Below are positions 5,031 to 55,623 of a DNA stretch of 64,000 nt, piece after piece; positions within the stretch are counted from its first letter, which is position 1; the number at the start of each line of letters is the position of its first letter. The notes beneath the pieces are model-generated. The model ran no database searches and had not been told where the DNA came from. It worked only from the letters and a program-made list of their open reading frames with translations. The DNA is from Candidatus Saccharimonadota bacterium. GTDB lineage: Bacteria; Patescibacteriota; Saccharimonadia; Saccharimonadales; JAXHMH01. The position numbers were made by a program, and so were the translations under genes. The stretch spans positions 64,485 through 128,484 of the forward strand of contig JAXHMH010000004.1 of assembly GCA_034521515.1 (NCBI GenBank), written 5' to 3'.

Positions 5031-5115
5031 GCGGCGGTGGCGGAATTGGTAGACGCGCTAGTCTTAGGAACTAGTATCGCAAGATGTGGAGGTTCAAGTC
5101 CTCTCCGCCGCACCA
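5031..5115 (+). tRNA. tRNA-Leu (anticodon TAG), class II, CCA encoded
   Basis: Acceptor GCGGCGG/CCGCCGC+A+CCA, D arm GCG-GAATTGGTAGA-CGC, anticodon stem CTAGT/ACTAG with loop CTTAGGA, long variable arm, T arm GGAGG-TTCAAGT-CCTCT. Confidence 0.92.
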
Positions 5116-5412
5116 AGAATTCAACTACGGGACGCTAGTCCTCGAAACAAGCGCCTTGCGCTGCTACGGGGTAAACTTAGGAACTAGTGCCTCACGTGGC
5201 GTGGAGGTTCACCATATCATCCGATATGGTGCCCTGTCGGATGACAGGGCAAGTCCTCTCCGCCGCACCAAGAATTCAACTACGGGACGCTAGTCCTCGA
5301 AACAAGCGCCTTGCGCTGCTACTGGGTAAACTTAGGAACTAGTGCCTCACGTGGCGTGGAGGTTCACCATATCATCCGATATGGTGCCCTGTCGGATGAC
5401 AGGGCAAGTCCT
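5116..5412 (+). repeat. two tandem 155-bp units, each ending in a tRNA-Leu 3'-half pseudo-copy
   Basis: AGAATTCAAC restarts at 5116 and 5271. The units differ at one base (5168 g vs 5323 t). Each contains CTTAGGAACTAGT...GTGGAGGTTCA + 40-nt insert + AGTCCT. Confidence 0.9.
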
Positions 5413-8587: not shown

Positions 8588-8732
8588 CACTACGTACTAC
8601 GTACTACGTACTATGTACTAAGTACTAACCACCAGGCATTATCTAGGTACTAGGTACTAGGTACTATGTACTAAGTACTACGCACTAGGTACTGTGTACT
8701 AAGTACTATTATGTACTGTGTACTAAGTACTT
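8588..8732. repeat. heptanucleotide array, about 18 x TACT(A/G)NG in two blocks (8588-8629, 8641-8732)
   Basis: Read directly: cactacg tactacg tactacg tactatg tactaag tactaac ... tactagg tactagg tactatg tactaag tactacg cactagg tactgtg tactaag. Confidence 0.95.
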
Positions 8733-21443: not shown

Positions 21444-21579
21444 ACATTGGTAACTCGCGTGAGGGCTTTTGTTGGTTTGTGCCAACAAATATGGATCGCG
21501 AATCGTTATCAACAATAATTCATTAAACCCTCATGACTCATTTTCATGAATCATGAAAATACGAAAGGATTTATTAACT

Positions 21580-22761
21580 ATGGCAGATTTTGACCGAAGC
21601 AAGCCACATGTAAACGTTGGAACTATGGGGCACGTTGACCATGGTAAAACCACATTGACAGCAGCTATTACAGCAACGCTTGCAAAAAAGCTTCCGAGCG
21701 ACGTAAATAAACCAATTGCATATGATCAGATCGACAATGCACCGGAAGAAAAGTCCCGCGGTATTACTATCGCAACTTCTCACCAGGAATATGAGTCAGA
21801 AAACCGGCACTATGCACACGTCGACATGCCCGGTCACGCCGACTACGTAAAGAACATGATTACCGGTGCAGCTCAGGTTGATGGTGCAATTTTAGTCGTA
21901 TCTGCCGCTGATGGCCCTATGCCACAAACGCGTGAGCATGTTTTGCTTGCTAAGCAAGTAGGAGTTCCTAGCATTTTGGTCTTCATGAACAAAATGGATC
22001 TTGCAGATCCGGAACTAGTAGAACTTGTCGAAATGGATATTCGCGAATTGCTTGGTAAATACGAGTTTGATGAAAATGCTCCTATCGTTAAAGGTTCTGC
22101 AATCAAAGCTCTTGAAGGTGATGCAGAGAACGAAGACGCTATTATGGAGCTTATTAAGGCGATGGATGATTATATTCCAGAGCCAAAGCGTGATCTTGAT
22201 AAGCCTTTCTTGATGCCGGTTGAAGACGTGTTCTCTATTAAAGGTCGTGGAACGGTTGCTACTGGACGCGTCGAACAAGGAGTCGTTAAGGTTAACGAAG
22301 AAGTCGAAATTGTTGGTGTTCGTGACACTCGTAAATCAGTTGTTACTGGTGTAGAGATGTTCAAGAAAAATCTTGATCAAGGTCAAGCCGGTGATAACGT
22401 CGGAATTTTGCTACGCGGTATTGAACGCGATGACATCGAACGCGGACAAGTTATTTGTAAACCTGGTTCAATCACACCACACACTGAGTTTGATGCAGAA
22501 GTTTACATTCTTAAAAAAGAGGAGGGTGGTCGACATACCCCATTCTTTAAAGGGTACAAGCCGCAATTTTACATCCGTACAACCGATGTAACTGGCGAAG
22601 TTGAACTACCAGCAGACAAAGAAATGGTAATGCCAGGCGACACAGTAACCTTTAAGGTTAAGTTGCTTGCCCCGATTGCTATGGAGCAAGGTCTTCGCTT
22701 TGCTATCCGTGAGGGTGGCCGAACTGTTGGTGCTGGTGTAGTAACCAAAATCAACAAGTAG
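21580..22761 (+). CDS. tuf: elongation factor Tu
   Basis: [41 protein letters not shown]; start trimmed to ATG 21580 (AAAGGA SD). Confidence 0.97.
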
Positions 22762-22845: not shown

Positions 22846-23145
22846 GTTACGCACTCAACGTATTAGTATACGTCTCGCTTACGTTACTCAAGAGAAATCA
22901 CAAACTGCACTCAACTCTGTCAGCTGCGTCGTCCTCGGAAGAAATCAAAAACTAGCACCGTGTGTGAATCCCTCAGAAGCGTTCCAGGCGTTACATTGTG
23001 CACGGGGATTTTGTTACGCACTCAACGTATTAGTATACGTCTCGCTTACGTTACTCAAGAGAAATCACAAACTGCACTCAACTCTGTCAGCTGCGTCGTC
23101 CTCGGAAGAAATCAAAAACTAGAACCGTGTGTGAGTTCCTCAGAC
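22846..23145. repeat. direct duplication, 2 x about 133 bp with a 167-bp period
   Basis: GTTACGCACTCAACGTATTAGTATACG...AAATCAAAAACTAG(C/A)ACCGTGTGTGA at 22846 and 23013; near-identical. Confidence 0.9.
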
Positions 23146-23410: not shown

Positions 23411-23758
23411 ATGGCTGAAGCCAAAAAATCATCAACCCCCGCTAAAAACGAGGTAAAGCAGCGCATACGTATACGACTAAAGGCGTATGATCATAAAGTA
23501 ATAGATCAATCCACAAAACAGATTGTCGATACAGCGATTCGTACCGGTGCTACAATTGCCGGACCTATCCCATTGCCAACTAAGCGATCAGTATTTACGG
23601 TCGTTAAAAGCCCTCACGTTTATAAAAAACACCGCGAACAATTTGAGATGCGTGTTCATAAACGACTTATCGACGTATTAGAGCCAACACCGAAGACGAT
23701 TGACTCACTCATGAATCTCTCATTGCCTGCCGGCTGTGACGCCGAAATCAAGATGTAA
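23411..23758 (+). CDS. rpsJ: 30S ribosomal protein S10
   Basis: [17 protein letters not shown]..., ends AEIKM; SD GAAAGGAG, ATG 23411 (ORF-track TTG 23405). Confidence 0.95.
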
Positions 23759-23766
23759 GGCTGCGA

Positions 23767-23886
23767 CCTGCCCGTCTTGTCAGACAGACAGGCGGGCCTG
23801 CCCGTCTTGTCAGACAGACAGGCGGGCCTGCCCGTCTTGTCAGACAGACAGGCGGGCCTGCCCGTCTTGTCAGACAGACAGGCGGG
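23767..23886 (+). repeat. four perfect tandem 30-nt palindromic units
   Basis: CCTGCCCGTCTTGTCAGACAGACAGGCGGG x4; 11-nt arms pair with one G-T wobble and one mismatch. Confidence 0.95.
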
Positions 23887-24013
23887 CGCCGAAATAAAAA
23901 TGTAGCAAGTTGGGTGCTTGCCCCGCAGTAATGTGTAGTATTTACTGACGGAATGAGGCTGAAATTAAGATGTAGCACTTGCTTCTGTAGCTTTGTGATA
24001 CCATATTAATATT

Positions 24014-24292
24014 GTGGCAAACAAACCAAAAAAACACAGTAAAACATCCAATAACCAAGATAGCGTATTTGTACTAAAAATACTTTTGTATTTGCTGCTA
24101 GGAATGCAGTGGGTGTGGTTCGTTGATGCGTTAGGTAATGTAGTATTCTTACTGCCCTTTGGGCCAGCACTAGGGTTGCTATTTGCTAGTCACGAACACT
24201 TTAGTCTTGATAGAAAACTTGATTACACAGTTTTGTTATTGTCTGGAGCGGTTAGTTTTTTGCTTGGTGTAGGGTTTTACTTTACCGTTTAA
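24014..24292 (+). CDS. small hypothetical membrane protein
   Basis: 92 aa, GTG start, three hydrophobic segments. Confidence 0.4.
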   Translation: MANKPKKHSKTSNNQDSVFVLKILLYLLLGMQWVWFVDALGNVVFLLPFGPALGLLFASHEHFSLDRKLDYTVLLLSGAVSFLLGVGFYFTV

Positions 24293-25481
24293 GCGTTTTG
24301 TTATTGAGACAAATAGCACAATACTCTTCGGTGTCATTACGTGCTCGCCATATTTTTATAGCCTTCTTGGGCTGCATGATATCTAAATAACCAAATAAGT
24401 CTGCTAAGTCCCGTATTACAGAAGCAGTAATTCCTCTTAAAGAATAACCTCTGTAGTGAAGTAGCGCCCATTTATTACCAACCGGAACGACCACGATTGG
24501 GCTACGGGGCTTGTATTTTTTAAGTTTTTTGCCTTTTAACTGGCGCTGTAATTGGCTTGCTACGTAACCCGCGTCGTGTACTGCGGTTTGCGCATAACCA
24601 CTGTTAGCAGTGTCTGCGTTATCCCCAATAACAAAGACATCGGGGTGAACTTTCAGGTAATTGTCTACTAGTATTTTACCGCGTTTAGAAATACCAAACC
24701 ACTGGTTGTTTTGTCTATAAAATGAAGGTAATTTCGCTCCGGCGCACCATACGGCGGTGTTGGTATCAAATAAATGTTTATCGGTTACTAGTTGTTTAGA
24801 GGTCTCTTTTTTTACATTGGTTTTTGGCCAAAATCGTATACCTAACCTTTTCAACCTAAGTCGAGCATGCTTTGACGTGCTAACAGGTAAGTTTGGTAGC
24901 GGTTTGTCTGAACGATCAACAAGGTCAATTTGTACCTTGGGATGCTTGATTTTATGTTTTTTAGCTATCTTTTGTACATACGATGCTAAACCTGCCGATA
25001 CTTCTACACCTGTTGCTCCAGCTCCAATAACAACGTAACTATGCTCGGAATTGTGTGCTGTTGTCATGAAATCGTGTAGGTGTTTCCGTAAATCTAAAAT
25101 TTCATCAGGGGAAGTCACGCTAAAGGCGTTTTGTTTGATACCTGGTGTGTCAAAATAGTCTGGTACGGAGCCTAGTGCAAGAACGACCTTATCGTAGTGT
25201 AGCGACTTACCGGATCCAGTAGTTAAGATATGTTTGTTCATATCAATGTGTTTGGCACGACCGTATATAACTTCTACATTTTTTAATGGTTTAGTTATAT
25301 CCTTAATCGGTATGGAGGAAGCGCGCATTGTAAAGCCTGTGGCAGTACGATACAGGGCGGGGCAATAGCGAAAGTCATGTCGCTCCGTTAAAAGCGTAAT
25401 TTGAACGTCACTGCGAGAACGGAGTTGCTTAGCAAGAGCTAAACCTCCAAACCCGCCGCCGACAATAATTAATCTAAGCAT
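24282..25481 (-). CDS. ndh: type II NADH dehydrogenase (NDH-2) / FAD-dependent pyridine nucleotide-disulfide oxidoreductase
   Basis: 399 aa; RLIIVGGGFGG FAD fold and second VVIGAGATGVE dinucleotide fold. Confidence 0.85.
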   Translation of the reverse strand: MLRLIIVGGGFGGLALAKQLRSRSDVQITLLTERHDFRYCPALYRTATGFTMRASSIPIKDITKPLKNVEVIYGRAKHIDMNKHILTTGSGKSLHYDKVVLALGSVPDYFDTPGIKQNAFSVTSPDEILDLRKHLHDFMTTAHNSEHSYVVIGAGATGVEVSAGLASYVQKIAKKHKIKHPKVQIDLVDRSDKPLPNLPVSTSKHARLRLKRLGIRFWPKTNVKKETSKQLVTDKHLFDTNTAVWCAGAKLPSFYRQNNQWFGISKRGKILVDNYLKVHPDVFVIGDNADTANSGYAQTAVHDAGYVASQLQRQLKGKKLKKYKPRSPIVVVPVGNKWALLHYRGYSLRGITASVIRDLADLFGYLDIMQPKKAIKIWRARNDTEEYCAICLNNKTLKR

Positions 25482-25560
25482 TAGTAATACTATAGCTTTA
25501 TCTGTAGCCTGTATACAAGTAGTTGCACAGAATCACGGTAACGGTTACTCTATTAGTGAA

Positions 25561-27213
25561 ATGACAAAATATATAAAAGAAATAGAAAAACAAATTACTG
25601 GTGAGGTTAGCACTGAAGCAGAAATTAAGAATGCTTACAGTCACGATGCCAGTCTGTTTGAGGTTGTACCCCAAGCTGTGGTGTTTCCAAAGGATAGCTC
25701 AGACGTTCAGAGTGTCGTTAACATCATACGTAAAGCCAAACAATCAGGAGAAAATGCCGCAATTACAGCTCGAAGTGCAGGTACTGATATGGGCGGTGCG
25801 GCAATAGGCGAATCGATAGTACTAGACATGACGAAGTACTTTAATGCTATTCACGAAGTCACGTCGACCTCAGCGCACGCGCAGCCAGGAGTTTATTATC
25901 GAGATTTTGAGGTATCAACACTTGAACATGGTGCTTTATTGCCACCGTATCCTGCCTCAAGAGGGCTGTGTACGATTGGCGGCATGGTTGCTAATAACTC
26001 CGGAGGAGAAAAATCACTTCAGTACGGCAAGACTGAAAACTTCGTACGTGAGCTAAAGGTAGTGCTGTCAGATGGTAATGAGTACACCATTAAACCTCTA
26101 AAAAAGCCTGAACTCGATAAAATAATGAAAAAGAATACATTCGAGGGTCGATTTTATAAGCAAGTATTTGATCTAGTAGAAAATAATTATGACGAAATAA
26201 AAGCTGCTAAGCCTAATGTAAGTAAAGACTCCACCGGATACCATATATGGAATGTTTGGGATAGGGATACGGGTATATTTGATTTGACTCAGTTGATAGT
26301 CGGTTCACAGGGTACTTTGGGTATAGTTACCGATATAACATTTCGACTCGTGCCCGCACCGAGACATTCCGGAACTCTTGTTGTATTTCTAAGAGACATT
26401 AGCGATCTTGGAAAATTAATAAATGATGTATTGCGACATAAACCTGCTACTTTCGAAGGTTTCGACAACTATACATTGATGCTTAGTATTAAACTGTTCT
26501 TTTACTTTAGAAAAACACTTGGTTGGTTTGGCATGATGAAACTAGGTCTGCAACTTATACCGAATGCTCTTATGATGTTCCGCGGCATACCGAAAATGGT
26601 CTTACTGATTGAGTTTAATGGCCAGACCAAAGACGAGGTTAAGCAAAAAGTTCACAATATGCGTACTGCACTAAAGCCTTACAACCATGAAGCATTGTTC
26701 GAAGAAGATGAGACCGAGGCCAAAGCCAAGAAATTTTGGATTATGCGCAGAGAGAGCTTTAACTTGCTAAGGAAAAAGGTTAAAGACAAGCATACTGCAC
26801 CATTCATTGACGATCTTGTAGTGCCACCTCATCACCTACCAGCATTTTTACCTAAGGTGAGAGAAATTATGAAGCGGTATAAGCTACTTGCAACCATTGC
26901 TGGTCATATGGGTGATGGTAATTTTCATATTATTCCGCTTATGGAAATTGAGAAACAAAGTGAACGAGACAAACTAGAGCCAGCAATGAGAGAAGTCAAT
27001 AAATTAGTTTTAGAATTTGGCGGTTCGTTATCAGGTGAACATAACGATGGTATGATACGCGGCCCGTGGTTAGAGCAAATGTATGGAGCCAAAACTCTGG
27101 GATACTTTAAACAGGTAAAGTCAATATTTGACCCAACCAATATATTCAATCCACATAAAAAGACTGATGCTGAGTGGGAATATAGTATCAACCATGTTCG
27201 CAAGAGCTTCTAG
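25561..27213 (+). CDS. FAD-binding oxidoreductase (GlcD / D-lactate dehydrogenase-like)
   Basis: 550 aa; PCMH-type FAD-binding N-terminal domain, C-terminal GSLSGEHNDGMIRG block typical of FAD-linked oxidases. Confidence 0.75.
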   Translation: MTKYIKEIEKQITGEVSTEAEIKNAYSHDASLFEVVPQAVVFPKDSSDVQSVVNIIRKAKQSGENAAITARSAGTDMGGAAIGESIVLDMTKYFNAIHEVTSTSAHAQPGVYYRDFEVSTLEHGALLPPYPASRGLCTIGGMVANNSGGEKSLQYGKTENFVRELKVVLSDGNEYTIKPLKKPELDKIMKKNTFEGRFYKQVFDLVENNYDEIKAAKPNVSKDSTGYHIWNVWDRDTGIFDLTQLIVGSQGTLGIVTDITFRLVPAPRHSGTLVVFLRDISDLGKLINDVLRHKPATFEGFDNYTLMLSIKLFFYFRKTLGWFGMMKLGLQLIPNALMMFRGIPKMVLLIEFNGQTKDEVKQKVHNMRTALKPYNHEALFEEDETEAKAKKFWIMRRESFNLLRKKVKDKHTAPFIDDLVVPPHHLPAFLPKVREIMKRYKLLATIAGHMGDGNFHIIPLMEIEKQSERDKLEPAMREVNKLVLEFGGSLSGEHNDGMIRGPWLEQMYGAKTLGYFKQVKSIFDPTNIFNPHKKTDAEWEYSINHVRKSF

Positions 27214-27235
27214 ATATCAATACTTATACATAAAT

Positions 27236-27268
27236 AAAAATCCTCGGTGTATATAACCGAGGATTTTT
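27236..27268. terminator. bidirectional intrinsic terminator between convergent genes
   Basis: AAAAATCCTCGG-TGTATATAA-CCGAGGATTTTT. Confidence 0.75.
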
Positions 27269-27292
27269 CAGTATTAGCTGGAAGTTTAGTTG

Positions 27293-27832
27293 CTAGCTGA
27301 GTATAGGGAACTTTTTCACTAAAGCAGTTTTCTTCCATTGTTTACCAAAGCCAAGTCGTTGATTGTTGTCACCGAAGTAGATGGCTGCTAGTAGGACGCT
27401 GTAGACTACATGGTCATCTAATACTGGGTGATGTTCTGGTGGTAGCACTGCAGTCCACATCATCATGAGCATAACTGCACCACTGATAGTTCCTAGTTTT
27501 GTTGCGATTCCAAATGTTAGCGCAACACCTATACCAAGAAGACCCGTCATAAATAACAAATCAATAAAACCGTTTCCAGCCAAACCTGCATAAAAGTCTG
27601 CGAATGGTCCTTGAGTGCCAAACTTTAAAAATCCAGTGGTTGACGAGCCGCCCTGTAGTGCTGCACTGTCACACATTACGTTAATGCCATTGGTCGCCGC
27701 ATCTCGGCAAGTGGAAAAACCAAGCCCAATTAATTTGTCAAGAAACGCCCATAAAAACACCAGGCCAACGCTAATTCTAGCGATTCCAAGCGATACGAAC
27801 AGTTTATTTAGTGATTCTTTCTGTCTTGCCAT
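27293..27832 (-). CDS. DoxX-family membrane protein
   Basis: 179 aa, four hydrophobic helices, DoxX-like LIGLGFS / GLAGNGFIDLLFMTGLLGIG pattern. Confidence 0.65.
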   Translation of the reverse strand: MARQKESLNKLFVSLGIARISVGLVFLWAFLDKLIGLGFSTCRDAATNGINVMCDSAALQGGSSTTGFLKFGTQGPFADFYAGLAGNGFIDLLFMTGLLGIGVALTFGIATKLGTISGAVMLMMMWTAVLPPEHHPVLDDHVVYSVLLAAIYFGDNNQRLGFGKQWKKTALVKKFPILS

Positions 27833-27990
27833 AGTTTATGACTCCGTTGTTACTTTATATATCGTATAATAAGCATTAGCGTGACACTTTGCAAGTGTCG
27901 GTGGATTTAGCGCAGCTTTGAAATCAATATTTGAAATCTTTACCGTAATAGTGTTTATTGTAAAAAAATATATGTAGAATGAACAACATA

Positions 27991-28020
27991 TTGACAGGAG
28001 TAGGCGTTAAGTGCTAATCT
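27991..28020 (+). promoter_or_regulatory. putative promoter of the rplC-led operon
   Basis: TTGACA (27991-96), 17-18 nt, (C)TAATCT; about 135-nt leader before rplC. Confidence 0.35.
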
Positions 28021-28159
28021 GTTTTGGTATATAAAAATTCCAGACGGGATGGTTGATGTTGCAGGTCTACCAAATCAGAGGTAGAAACCACCACAGACCA
28101 GTATGTTACGAGTGCGCTAATAAACGCATCAAAGATAAATCTAAATATTAAGGGACGCT

Positions 28160-28771
28160 ATGAAAGCTTTAATCACCAGAAAAGTTGGCATGACTAGCAC
28201 TATCAATGATGATGGTACGGTTCAAGCCGTAACTTTGCTTTCCGCTAGCCCAAATACCATTACACAGGTGAAGTCCGACGAGACAGATGGTTACACATCT
28301 GTCCAGATTGGTATGGGTACAAAAAAACACGGCAAAGCGCAGGCAGGACATTTTAAAAAATCTAACGTTATGCCGGAAGTATCACGAGAAGTCCGTGTAG
28401 AAGAAATATCAGAAGACCTCACCGTTGGTAACCATCTAACAGCTGAGGTTTTTTCAGTTGGCGACACCGTCCATATCACCGGAACCAGTAAAGGTAAGGG
28501 TTTTGCCGGCACTATTAAACGTCACAATTTTCATCAACAACGCAAAACACACGGCGGAAACGGCAATGTACGTAAACCGGGTTCAATCGGTTCAATGTAT
28601 CCTCAGCGTATTTTTAAAGGCAAAAAAATGGCTGGACAGATGGGTGGCGAACAAGTGACAGTTCGTAATCTACGCGTTGCACTGATTGATGCGGAACATA
28701 ATGTCATAGGCATTGCCGGAGCAGTTCCAGGACCCCGCAAAGGTATAGTGATAATCAGGGAGGCCAAATAA
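28160..28771 (+). CDS. rplC: 50S ribosomal protein L3
   Basis: 203 aa; KGKGFAGTIKRHNF. Confidence 0.95.
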   Translation: MKALITRKVGMTSTINDDGTVQAVTLLSASPNTITQVKSDETDGYTSVQIGMGTKKHGKAQAGHFKKSNVMPEVSREVRVEEISEDLTVGNHLTAEVFSVGDTVHITGTSKGKGFAGTIKRHNFHQQRKTHGGNGNVRKPGSIGSMYPQRIFKGKKMAGQMGGEQVTVRNLRVALIDAEHNVIGIAGAVPGPRKGIVIIREAK

Positions 28772-48661: not shown

Positions 48662-48737
48662 TGGCAGGGGTGACAGGACTTGAACCTGCGACACCTGGTT
48701 TTGGAGACCAGTGCTCTACCAGCTGAGCTACACCCCT
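48662..48737 (-). tRNA. tRNA-Trp (anticodon CCA), CCA encoded
   Basis: Minus strand reads AGGGGTGTAGCTCAGCTGGTAGAGCACTGGTCTCCAAAACCAGGTGTCGCAGGTTCAAGTCCTGTCACCCCTGCCA. Confidence 0.92.
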
Positions 48738-48979
48738 ATATTCAATCTTTTTAGTAATGCTGTTCGTGTACCACGGCTTGATTTTACCGTATGTTCTCTC
48801 CTGCGTGCTAATTCTTGGGAAAGAAATGCTTCGTAATAGATTAACTTAAAGGGTCTCCTGCTTTTGGTTGATTCAACTTTACCGTCATTGTGATGTCTAA
48901 TACGTCGTTGCAGGTCATTAGTTGATCCGTAATAATGTTCATTATCAACTTCTGAAGTTAATACGTAAAAGTACCACAT
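48728..48979 (-). CDS. small GIY-YIG nuclease family protein
   Basis: 83 aa; WYFYVL (GIY), HYYGST (YIG), RRIRHHN, YYEAF motifs; the stop codon lies inside the tRNA-Trp acceptor stem (10-nt overlap). Confidence 0.85.
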   Translation of the reverse strand: MWYFYVLTSEVDNEHYYGSTNDLQRRIRHHNDGKVESTKSRRPFKLIYYEAFLSQELARRREHTVKSSRGTRTALLKRLNIGV

Positions 48980-48986
48980 ACAGCTA

Positions 48987-49039
48987 CTCTACCAGCTGAC
49001 CCGCCTGTCTGTCGACTAGACGGGCAGGGCTACACCCCT
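48987..49039 (-). repeat. duplicate of tRNA-Trp nt 1-24 interrupted by a 29-nt palindromic element
   Basis: 48987-48999 plus 49029-49039 equal 48714-48737. The insert at 49000-49028, CCCGCCTGTCTGTCGACTAGACGGGCAGG, is the reverse complement of the rpsJ-locus 30-mer with 1 substitution and 1 indel. Confidence 0.9.
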
Positions 49040-55395: not shown

Positions 55396-55623
55396 CGCTG
55401 GGCATTCATGATCAGAATCTTGAGATTGTCACGCGGCTGTTCGGTGCCGAATGCTGCATGCTCATGTGTTGCCAGACGGAAGCATTTACCATTGTAGGCA
55501 TCCGTACAGAATTTAATAATTAATAATTTGTGGGACCCGGCCTTCCACAGGAAAGCCGGGGTTAATACCACGACCCCAACAGTAAACACGAAAGTTACCG
55601 TGGGGCAGAAAGGATAAGACATT

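Follow-up and report, generated by a model that had tools for sequence, protein, structure and literature searches.

Spare rpsJ ends behind a hairpin array in a Saccharibacteria genome: a possible footprint of a mobile cassette that replaces gene ends

Introduction

In fungal mitochondria, C-terminal duplications of atp6 and cob are found beside free-standing genes of the GIY-YIG or LAGLIDADG type, for example in Endoconidiophora (PMC6279837). Here we describe a bacterial locus that resembles these duplications in several respects. It lies in a 64 kb stretch of a Saccharibacteria (TM7) genome (in the following the window, to whose whole length all window coordinates refer), where the end of rpsJ, the gene of ribosomal protein S10, is followed by an array of 30-nt hairpins and by two spare copies of the last codons and stop codon of the gene. 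The "hybrid gene" of Allomyces atp6 is a further case of the fungal kind.

Other described systems share some features with this locus. The palindromic elements of Rickettsia are situated inside functional open reading frames (ORFs) and are translated. Integrative elements that use the 3′ ends of tRNA genes or of other genes, as well as their ORF-less derivatives, the cis-mobilizable elements (CIMEs), restore the end of their target, leave a displaced copy of it and can accrete in tandem. The repetitive hairpin-forming elements, double-hairpin elements and GC clusters of mitochondria are companions of mobile DNA (PMC2800124). Finally, SegB of phage T4 is a GIY-YIG homing endonuclease which is encoded in, and acts on, a cluster of tRNA genes (PMC2330249).

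Results

The rpsJ gene of the window (23411–23758, plus strand) codes for an S10 protein of 115 aa with homologues in PF00338, and its functional end reads GGC TGT GAC GCC GAA ATC AAG ATG TAA (23732–23758, plus strand). The protein is 84–95% identical to S10 from metagenome-assembled genomes of Saccharibacteria. The 120 best homologues were inspected over their first 25 and last 45 residues. All 120 carried the motif ...AGCD(A/V)EI(K/R)(M/I), and in 119 of them the protein ends with it; the exception (P0036) has 15 residues of unrelated sequence beyond AEIKM. Some other irregular S10 genes were noticed. P0001, on a 953-nt ENA contig, has an internal tandem duplication of ∼30 residues (a 29-residue stretch occurs twice), the genes of loci L068, L072, and L077 end with an extra Asn codon after the usual last Met (...AEI(R/K)M-N-stop), and in L054 TCC takes the place of the stop codon after AEIKM.

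The degenerate pattern GCNGARATHAARATGTAR, that is GCN-GAR-ATH-AAR-ATG-stop, matches the window without mismatches at 23741, 23888, and 23958, always on the plus strand, whereas ∼0.01 matches of this 18-mer are expected per window by chance. In addition, GGCTGTGAC (23732–40) reappears directly behind the TAA as GGCTGCGAC (23759–67). The first spare end, in the following displaced end copy 1, is split. Its left piece GGCTGCGA (23759–23766, plus strand) begins right behind the stop codon, and the C of its GAC codon is left behind the array. Its right piece, (C) GCC GAA ATA AAA ATG TAG (23887–23905, plus strand), has three differences from the real end, which all fall on third codon positions. 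Between both pieces the 30-mer CCTGCCCGTCTTGTCAGACAGACAGGCGGG is repeated four times head to tail with 100% identity (23767–23886, plus strand). We refer to this unit as H1. It is built as CCTGCCCGTCT-TGTCAGAC-AGACAGGCGGG, with 11-nt arms around an 8-nt centre. The string at 23888 is in the reading frame of rpsJ and no stop codon intervenes behind the TAA, so that the region would read GCD-(10-residue unit)x4-AEIKM*.

A preliminary description of this DNA had listed the three AEIKM-stop strings, the GGCTGCGAC repeat, the four 30-nt units and the open frame of the second string, all of which we find again at the same positions. Two of its details need to be refined. The four copies are indeed identical, but the palindrome is not perfect as each unit has one T.G pair and one C x A mismatch. 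Furthermore, the array does split the spare end, but in its own register the split lies within the Asp codon (GA|C) and not exactly between GAC and GCC. The region upstream of the third string had been treated as a spacer; instead, it holds a second and different hairpin, GTGCTTGCCCCGCAGTAAT...TTTACTGACGGAAT (23914–23954, plus strand), which is recognized by covariance model R1 (41.9 bits, E ∼1e-8) as a diverged member of a second hairpin family, H2. Behind it follows displaced end copy 2, GAG GCT GAA ATT AAG ATG TAG (23955–23975, plus strand), in which the Asp codon is now GAG and which is out of the rpsJ frame by +1. It appears to represent an older, distal layer.

The array region is predicted to fold with −127.6 kcal/mol (z = −6.3). 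In an independent assembly of a different set of short reads (Logan SRR26473340, locus L087) the sequence downstream of the array is identical and the contig ends exactly at the array edge, as expected when a k = 31 assembler meets a perfect repeat of period 30. Exact look-ups with the S10 and EF-Tu proteins of the window returned no contig, and those with L3 and the oxidoreductase encoded downstream of rpsJ returned one Logan sample. Since its contigs stop at the array, they give no view of copy-number variants. The array junction is thus real, and the copy number of four rests on one assembly. Rfam gave only meaningless microRNA-type matches on the array, far below the thresholds, and neither H1 nor H2 was found in viral contigs. 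A scan of all long ORFs of the window for duplicated 3′ ends returned rpsJ alone.

We looked for the same layout in other Saccharibacteria by an unbiased survey of 80 species-representative rpsJ loci and by a metagenome scan for two ends spaced 39–69 nt, the pattern of which forced the second end to be codon-perfect. An intact rpsJ end followed by a hairpin and a spare AEIKM-stop is present in 2 of the 80 species representatives (L065 and L074), and the scan yielded four more distinct cases (L081, L082/L085, L083, and L084). Altogether, at least six Saccharibacteria besides that of the window share the layout, and three families of hairpins are involved. Locus L065 reads TAG-tagccgttt-GGCTGCGAC, then one 30-nt unit (ctgtccgtcctgtcggaaagacaagcgggc) and then GCCGAAATCAAAATGTAA, and corresponds to the proximal module of the window, except that H1 is present once. 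In L074 the hairpin is another one, CCCCGTAGTAGCG-CAT-CGCTCACTACTGGGG; together with the GAC GCC GAA ATC AAG ATG TAG behind it, it is homologous to positions 23914–23975 of the window. L081 likewise has an H2 module behind rpsJ, and L084 has two H2 modules in tandem and hence three rpsJ ends. Another 30-nt hairpin is located at the same GAC|GCC point in L083, and L082/L085 show a third hairpin type.

A stable hairpin precedes every spare end, and the spare stop codon marks the exact point at which the genomes cease to be homologous. Within the unbiased 80 loci, spare ends and hairpins of these families behind rpsJ were found only together, neither occurring without the other. By our count, the hairpin begins ∼11–14 nt past the stop codon in most modules and up to ∼20 nt past it in L065 and L082. 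Canonical terminators follow the module in L065 and L081, which places the module within the rpsJ transcript. In the window, no intrinsic terminator was found behind the hairpins by a scan of the plus strand, and the hairpins are followed by GCCGAAAT and not by a U-tract. Most likely, the module is transcribed as part of the rpsJ 3′ untranslated region (3′ UTR) and folds into strong stem–loops. On a tree of EF-Tu the module-bearing genomes are scattered, apart from one clade formed by the H2-bearing L074, L081, and L084, whose modules therefore look inherited.

The preliminary description had proposed to compare the rpsJ 3′ regions of relatives, and in this comparison the downstream AEIKM-stop strings recur with a divergence that follows the codon pattern. 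When the spare ends are compared with the real end of their own genome, 25 differences fall on third positions and 1 on a first or second position. Outside the set for which the search pattern forced a codon-perfect second end, there are 17 third-position differences against 1 at first or second positions (P ∼7e-5 under neutral drift of the spare copy). In L074, L081, and L084 the four-fold sites of tuf are only 45–62% identical; in the last 18 nt of the spare ends of these genomes the 12 first and second positions are unchanged, and 2–4 of the 6 third positions differ. Between the window and L065 the neutral sites are saturated (40% identity), yet 50 of the 57 module positions are shared. Within L065, 5 of the 6 third positions in the last 18 nt distinguish the real from the spare end, and the three codons before them add two further third-position differences. 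That first and second positions are kept despite saturated neutral sites suggests either a constraint at the codon level or repeated renewal from real ends. Judged by this pattern, the spare ends do not seem to be decaying; the distal modules (displaced end copy 2 of the window and the second module of L084) form a more decayed layer. The idea that the copies had once been coding ends or came from other alleles thus agrees with their allele-like, coding-selected differences, but to call them relics would be too weak as first and second positions are all kept.

At synonymous sites, the resemblance between the real and the spare end of a genome does not exceed that of unrelated alleles. Such a lack of likeness is expected if one copy came from a donor and the other from the recipient. 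Gene conversion between real and spare ends is unsupported for the same reason, and an antisense RNA, which predicts third-position matches within a genome, was dismissed as such matches were not seen. No support was found for a reading of AAG-ATG-TAA as a promoter or as a start-stop mini-ORF.

A search for the 30-mer elsewhere, as had been advised, turned up a second H1 copy in the window at 49000–49028 (short-word BLAST). There, a 29-nt H1 splits a displaced fragment of tRNA-Trp comprising nt 1 to ∼26 (48980–49039, minus strand) after nt 11, so that the sequence reads AGGGGTGTAGC, H1 as CCTGCCCGTCTAGTCGACAGACAGGCGGG, and TCAGCTGGTAGAGTAGCTGT. On the minus strand the fragment runs directly into the ATG of a gene for a stand-alone, UPF0213-like GIY-YIG nuclease of 83 aa (48728–48979, minus strand; PF01541, E = 6e-17), and this gene is followed by the intact tRNA-Trp(cca) (48662–48737, minus strand). 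The relatives of the 83-aa protein in the PDB, 1zg2 and 1ywl, both belong to UPF0213, and its homologous genes comprise 29 proteins found. The order of D-loop-split tRNA-Trp fragment, GIY-YIG ORF and intact tRNA-Trp recurs in five other genome groups (L088–91, L092, L095, L097/98, and L099). In these the cassette sits behind the native tRNA promoter, and H1 is present in either orientation at the same position of the D-loop. L092 has a second H1-bearing tRNA fragment and L095 a fragment with an H1 remnant.

The GIY-YIG ORF ends with ATA GGG GTG TAG (48728–48740, minus strand), and its last codons and stop lie within the first 10 nt of tRNA-Trp. Processing of a co-transcript by RNase P would thus remove the stop codon. 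The same overlap exists in L088, L097, and L099. Some related tRNA sites were also seen. A more distantly related GIY-YIG gene (51% identity) is flanked in L093 (∼1040–1090) and L094 by a tyrosine integrase gene on one side and, upstream, by a tRNA-Arg(tct). The 3′ end of this tRNA (GGCACGCCA) recurs behind an 18-nt hairpin (cgtcgttcgcgaacgacg). In the window (5031–5412), a 155-nt unit is present behind tRNA-Leu(tag) in 2.1 tandem copies that are 99% identical. Each unit comprises the last 21 nt of the tRNA, ∼93 nt, a second 3′ half of the tRNA that looks foreign and has another variable arm, and a 38-nt double hairpin (CCATATCATCCGATATGG-TG-CCCTGTCGGATGACAGGG) inserted in the T-loop. The architecture is that of rpsJ and tRNA-Trp; the hairpin is different.

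The two hairpin families were followed with covariance models, R1 for H2 and R2 for H1. Over ∼0.96 Mb of Saccharibacteria DNA the strong matches of R2 (≥43 bits) are confined to rpsJ ends and tRNA-Trp fragments; two weak ones lie in L068. The H1 units at rpsJ are ∼90% identical to the H1 at tRNA-Trp of the window and to the copies in other genomes. Across six copies the arms are invariant in sequence, including the T.G pair and the C x A mismatch, whereas the centre varies and no covariation is seen, which is the pattern of a protein recognition site or of a terminal inverted repeat. Neither at rpsJ (GA|C) nor at tRNA-Trp (D-loop) are flanking bases repeated around H1. The 100% identity of the four units at rpsJ argues for a recent expansion.

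Hairpins homologous to the H2 of the window are present at the rpsJ ends of L074, L081, and L084, and 4 of the 13 pairs have changed on both sides, with 92% of the cells paired. Further H2-like copies were detected by R1 on the opposite strand, namely upstream of the rplC promoter in L074, inside the rplC leader in L081 and, as a weaker match, just upstream of the ribosome-binding site of rplA in the window (55573–55612, minus strand; 22.9 bits, E ∼1e-3). The copies of the sister genomes L074 and L081 are at non-orthologous positions, the L081 copy being on the other side of a conserved landmark. The stem–loop near rplA ends ∼11 nt before the start codon; it could matter for L1 regulation or merely be another copy of the element. 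Going by these distributions, H1 and H2 appear to be elements and not local inventions. In this respect the earlier idea of a small palindromic element at the gene end stood up, as H1 is a discrete element that is also present at tRNA-Trp and at the rpsJ end of L065. Two derivations of H2 were dropped. The sequence TTGCCTGCC before H2 had been taken for Leu-Pro-Ala codons of a displaced end, and R1 matches elsewhere put CCTGCCCC into the element. For an origin of the right arm (TCACTAC...) from rpsJ codons by fold-back synthesis, the match is only 7 nt long and restricted to one genome.

The gene order around the locus is fusA, tuf (21553–22761), rpsJ (23411–23758), a small membrane-protein gene (24014–24292, plus strand), three unrelated genes, and rplC at 28160. 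The small membrane protein has no Pfam family and is the native downstream neighbour of rpsJ in most Saccharibacteria; as surveyed in loci L001–L085 it is a conserved protein of ∼93 aa (MAK..K...EPDS.F.LK...L..G.QW...). In the relatives rplC usually has its own TTGACA-type promoter and leader apart from rpsJ. Thus, the separation of rpsJ from rplC, to which the preliminary description had referred as a now-monocistronic rpsJ, is normal for the group. The stretch from rpsJ to rplC is a hotspot in which gene content varies; in the window (24014–28159) it contains genes for a pyridine-nucleotide oxidoreductase, a FAD-linked oxidase, and a 179-aa membrane protein. Two direct repeats of 132 nt (22846–22977 and 23013–23144, 98% identical, spaced 167 nt) lie between the tuf terminator and rpsJ; they gave no Rfam match and contain no credible ORF. 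Furthermore, ∼20 copies of a 7-nt repeat (ACTAGGT/ACTAAGT) occur at 8589–8731 between the trigger-factor gene and clpP.

Discussion

The rpsJ and the tRNA-Trp locus share one anatomy: a complete functional gene end is followed by a displaced end, which still adjoins the native flank and is split by a palindrome at a fixed point. We suggest that the array and the two spare AEIKM-stop strings behind rpsJ were left by a site-specific mobile cassette of a kind that replaces the ends of genes, and that they represent its ORF-less footprint. Taken in this broad sense we would give the explanation a probability of roughly 0.5; the narrower version, in which a GIY-YIG nuclease drives the replacement by homing, is tentative and we consider it clearly less probable. 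A break or an insertion would occur at a fixed point of a conserved gene end, at GA|C of the last Asp codon of rpsJ or in the D-loop of tRNA-Trp. Repair by copying from, or recombining with, an element-bearing allele would then supply a replacement end, so that the gene stays intact, and the end of the recipient would be displaced outwards, still on its native flank and now split by the hairpin. If repeated invasions stack with the newest adjoining the gene, at least two events may have taken place in the window, an H2-type event that is now distal and partly decayed and an H1-type event that is now proximal. H1 would afterwards have expanded from one unit, as seen in L065, to four by replication slippage or unequal exchange.

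The preliminary description had inferred that a palindromic element hit the essential gene at least twice and that a duplicated terminus rescued it. We agree that a second copy of the end preserves the gene and that at least two layers exist, but these belong to two hairpin families and not to one element that came twice. If the donor end becomes the working end, differences that are only synonymous, the lack of extra likeness within a genome and the stop of homology at the spare stop codon would all follow. There is no need to assume a host function for the module.

Several observations weigh against the cassette footprint. The nuclease gene, which in homing cassettes lies in or next to the duplication, is here present at tRNA-Trp only and stands beside the rpsJ module in none of the 8 module-bearing loci, so that at rpsJ a nuclease would have to act in trans. 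With its 83 aa, the GIY-YIG protein consists of a UPF0213-type catalytic domain and nothing else; it is devoid of the DNA-binding domain of characterized homing endonucleases. No pair of empty and occupied alleles was seen within one species, and the real ends of the module-bearing genomes are not noticeably alike, as a recent supply by one element would require. The H2 modules of L074, L081, and L084 look vertically inherited. Finally, a simple old footprint would have decayed, and hence repeated re-invasion or a function must be added to the explanation.

Such a function would be provided if the stem–loops were a host-selected element of the 3′ UTR which protects or regulates the rpsJ mRNA, by blocking 3′ exonucleases, as a processing site or as an insulation from the next gene, with the spare end being a part of this RNA. 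As the sole explanation we consider this unlikely, although it could coexist with a mobile cassette. The two-sided changes and the high pairing of H2, the conservation of the seemingly vertical H2 modules far beyond neutral sites, the distance of mostly ∼11–14 nt from the stop codon, the strong folding and the terminators that place the module inside the transcript are what one would expect of it. On the other hand, an element selected by the host would hardly be restricted to 2 of the 80 species representatives, nor would three unrelated hairpin families be found at the same place. H1 is conserved in sequence without covariation and also resides in a tRNA fragment upstream of a nuclease gene in both orientations, and the H2-like copies elsewhere are on the opposite strand. 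Also unexplained would be why a codon-patterned copy of the gene end with its stop codon kept is located behind the hairpin. The more specific proposal of the preliminary description, stabilizers like the repetitive extragenic palindromic (REP) elements, fits poorly with the same rarity, with the position of H1 upstream of a gene in either orientation, and with the terminators after the modules of L065 and L081.

Less likely still is a CIME-like accretion of attachment sites, in which the last ∼20 nt of rpsJ would be an attachment site that was used by successive integrase-driven islands, whose later internal deletions left tandem repeats of the site with short remnants. Direct repeats of a conserved gene 3′ end are the signature of such integration, the region downstream of rpsJ is a hotspot of variable genes, and the 11-8-11 layout of H1 resembles the core site of a recombinase. 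The tandem-repeated 3′ end of tRNA-Leu in the window would fit as well, and so would L093/L094 with the GIY-YIG gene beside a tyrosine integrase, near a tRNA-Arg 3′ end duplicated around a hairpin. However, there is no integrase near rpsJ or tRNA-Trp in the window, only 9–60 nt lie between the repeats, with the same minimal content in several genomes, and the variable genes are outside of the repeats and not between them. In addition, no further copy of the rpsJ end was found elsewhere in the window or in the loci.

A local origin without any mobility, namely a slipped-strand tandem duplication of the gene end and the evolution of the hairpin in place from a GCCGGC-containing sequence, is in our view very improbable. 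The L082 module does look like a mutated copy of the last ∼14 codons with TCCGCC-AACT-GGCGGA as hairpin, and tandem amplification is clearly active at the locus. Yet such an origin leaves the ∼90% identity between the H1 units at rpsJ, at tRNA-Trp and in other genomes unaccounted for, and its prediction that H1 is absent from sites other than rpsJ is contradicted by the tRNA-Trp copies. Moreover, most synonymous sites distinguish the spare from the real ends, which would not be expected after a recent local duplication.

We give hardly any credit to recoding, that is read-through or ribosomal bypass which yields an S10 with an (10-residue)n-AEIKM tail or uses the distal end. The frame of the second string is open, the unit length is a multiple of three and the spare ends are conserved in a codon-patterned way, but L065 has two consecutive stop codons before the in-frame copy, the H2 modules contain in-frame TAG TAG and their frames differ between the sisters L074 and L081. 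Peptides of the array occurred in 0 of 5.8 billion predicted proteins (six-frame peptide query), and the S10 homologues examined end AEIKM-like apart from the run-on of P0036 and the internal duplication of P0001, none having an array peptide. Although perfect tandem repeats are hard to assemble and the antitoxins of type III toxin–antitoxin systems are short tandem RNA repeats, an assembly artefact or such an antitoxin array can practically be set aside, as the independent assembly has an identical flank and ends at the array edge, single-unit versions occur in independent NCBI, JGI, and ENA assemblies and in relatives, and no ToxN-like or defence-family protein is encoded nearby (Pfam, PADLOC).

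Returning to the cassette footprint, the kind of system is already known from organelles and phages. With the fungal cassettes the locus shares the intact end beside the insertion, the original end displaced downstream in a non-functional form, the GIY-YIG ORF (here at tRNA-Trp) and the stacking of layers; the intact end with a displaced partial copy is present at both rpsJ and tRNA-Trp. In contrast to the fungal cases, the locus belongs to the chromosome of a bacterium, rpsJ and a tRNA gene serve as targets, the form at rpsJ is ORF-less with a size of ∼60–150 nt, a 30-nt palindrome splits the displaced copy and the nuclease is a bare UPF0213-type domain. The mitochondrial hairpin elements are, like H1, short and GC-rich in an AT-richer genome, sporadic, without duplication of the flanks and sometimes located in genes. 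They are however present in many copies and mostly intergenic, whereas in the DNA examined H1 is found only in the displaced ends of two conserved genes, and its arms are conserved by sequence rather than by pairing. As in the case of T4 SegB, a GIY-YIG gene lies among tRNA genes and the flanks are inherited together with the nuclease gene. SegB is however a full-length modular enzyme with demonstrated cleavage.

We know of no hairpin-split tRNA fragment at SegB. REP elements and the bacterial interspersed mosaic elements (BIMEs) are likewise imperfect palindromes right behind stop codons, sometimes in tandem, and able to stabilize the upstream mRNA. On the contrary, REP elements are high-copy, have a GTAG-type head for RAYT transposases and are not situated within copies of the adjacent gene end. 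H1 has two loci in the 64 kb of the window and two kinds of sites in 0.96 Mb, H2 has two matches in the window, and no GTAG-type head was seen in H1. The 11-nt imperfect terminal inverted repeats of H1 recall a miniature inverted-repeat transposable element of the DDE type, but there is no target-site duplication at rpsJ or tRNA-Trp. As with the palindromic elements of Rickettsia the length of the unit fits the reading frame of an essential gene; here, however, the array lies past the stop codon and outside of the functional copy. The restored gene end, the displaced copy and the tandem layers are shared with CIMEs, from which the locus differs by the lack of an integrase nearby, by almost no cargo between the repeats and by a hairpin exactly at the junction. 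No account of such a locus in Saccharibacteria came up in the searchable literature. Three features appear to be new, namely the ORF-less miniature at rpsJ, the occurrence of a specific 30-nt palindrome both there and in the UPF0213-type GIY-YIG cassette at tRNA-Trp, and the fact that the displaced end is conserved at the level of codons.

Saccharibacteria and other candidate-phyla bacteria have tiny genomes which are rich in odd insertions, and how selfish DNA survives in indispensable genes is poorly understood. The loci of rpsJ and tRNA-Trp may represent a compact solution, in which the gene receives a new end and the former one stays behind a palindrome. Conservation at the codon level outside of any gene calls for an explanation, and annotators should regard the extra gene ends and tRNA fragments found here as structured features and not as noise. 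The link of a 30-nt element to the stand-alone GIY-YIG proteins of UPF0213 makes the role of these proteins testable. One may go further and speculate that H1, and perhaps H2, belongs to a new class of mobile palindromes of ∼30 nt which are moved by stand-alone UPF0213-type GIY-YIG nucleases, invade the ends of essential genes in Saccharibacteria and bring a replacement for the end with them. The displaced end would be kept codon-perfect by cycling back into use, either as homology arm for a new invasion or as the coding end after precise loss of the module. We regard this as rather unlikely, but if true it would provide a function for the widespread UPF0213 family and reveal a bacterial "spare gene-end" system.

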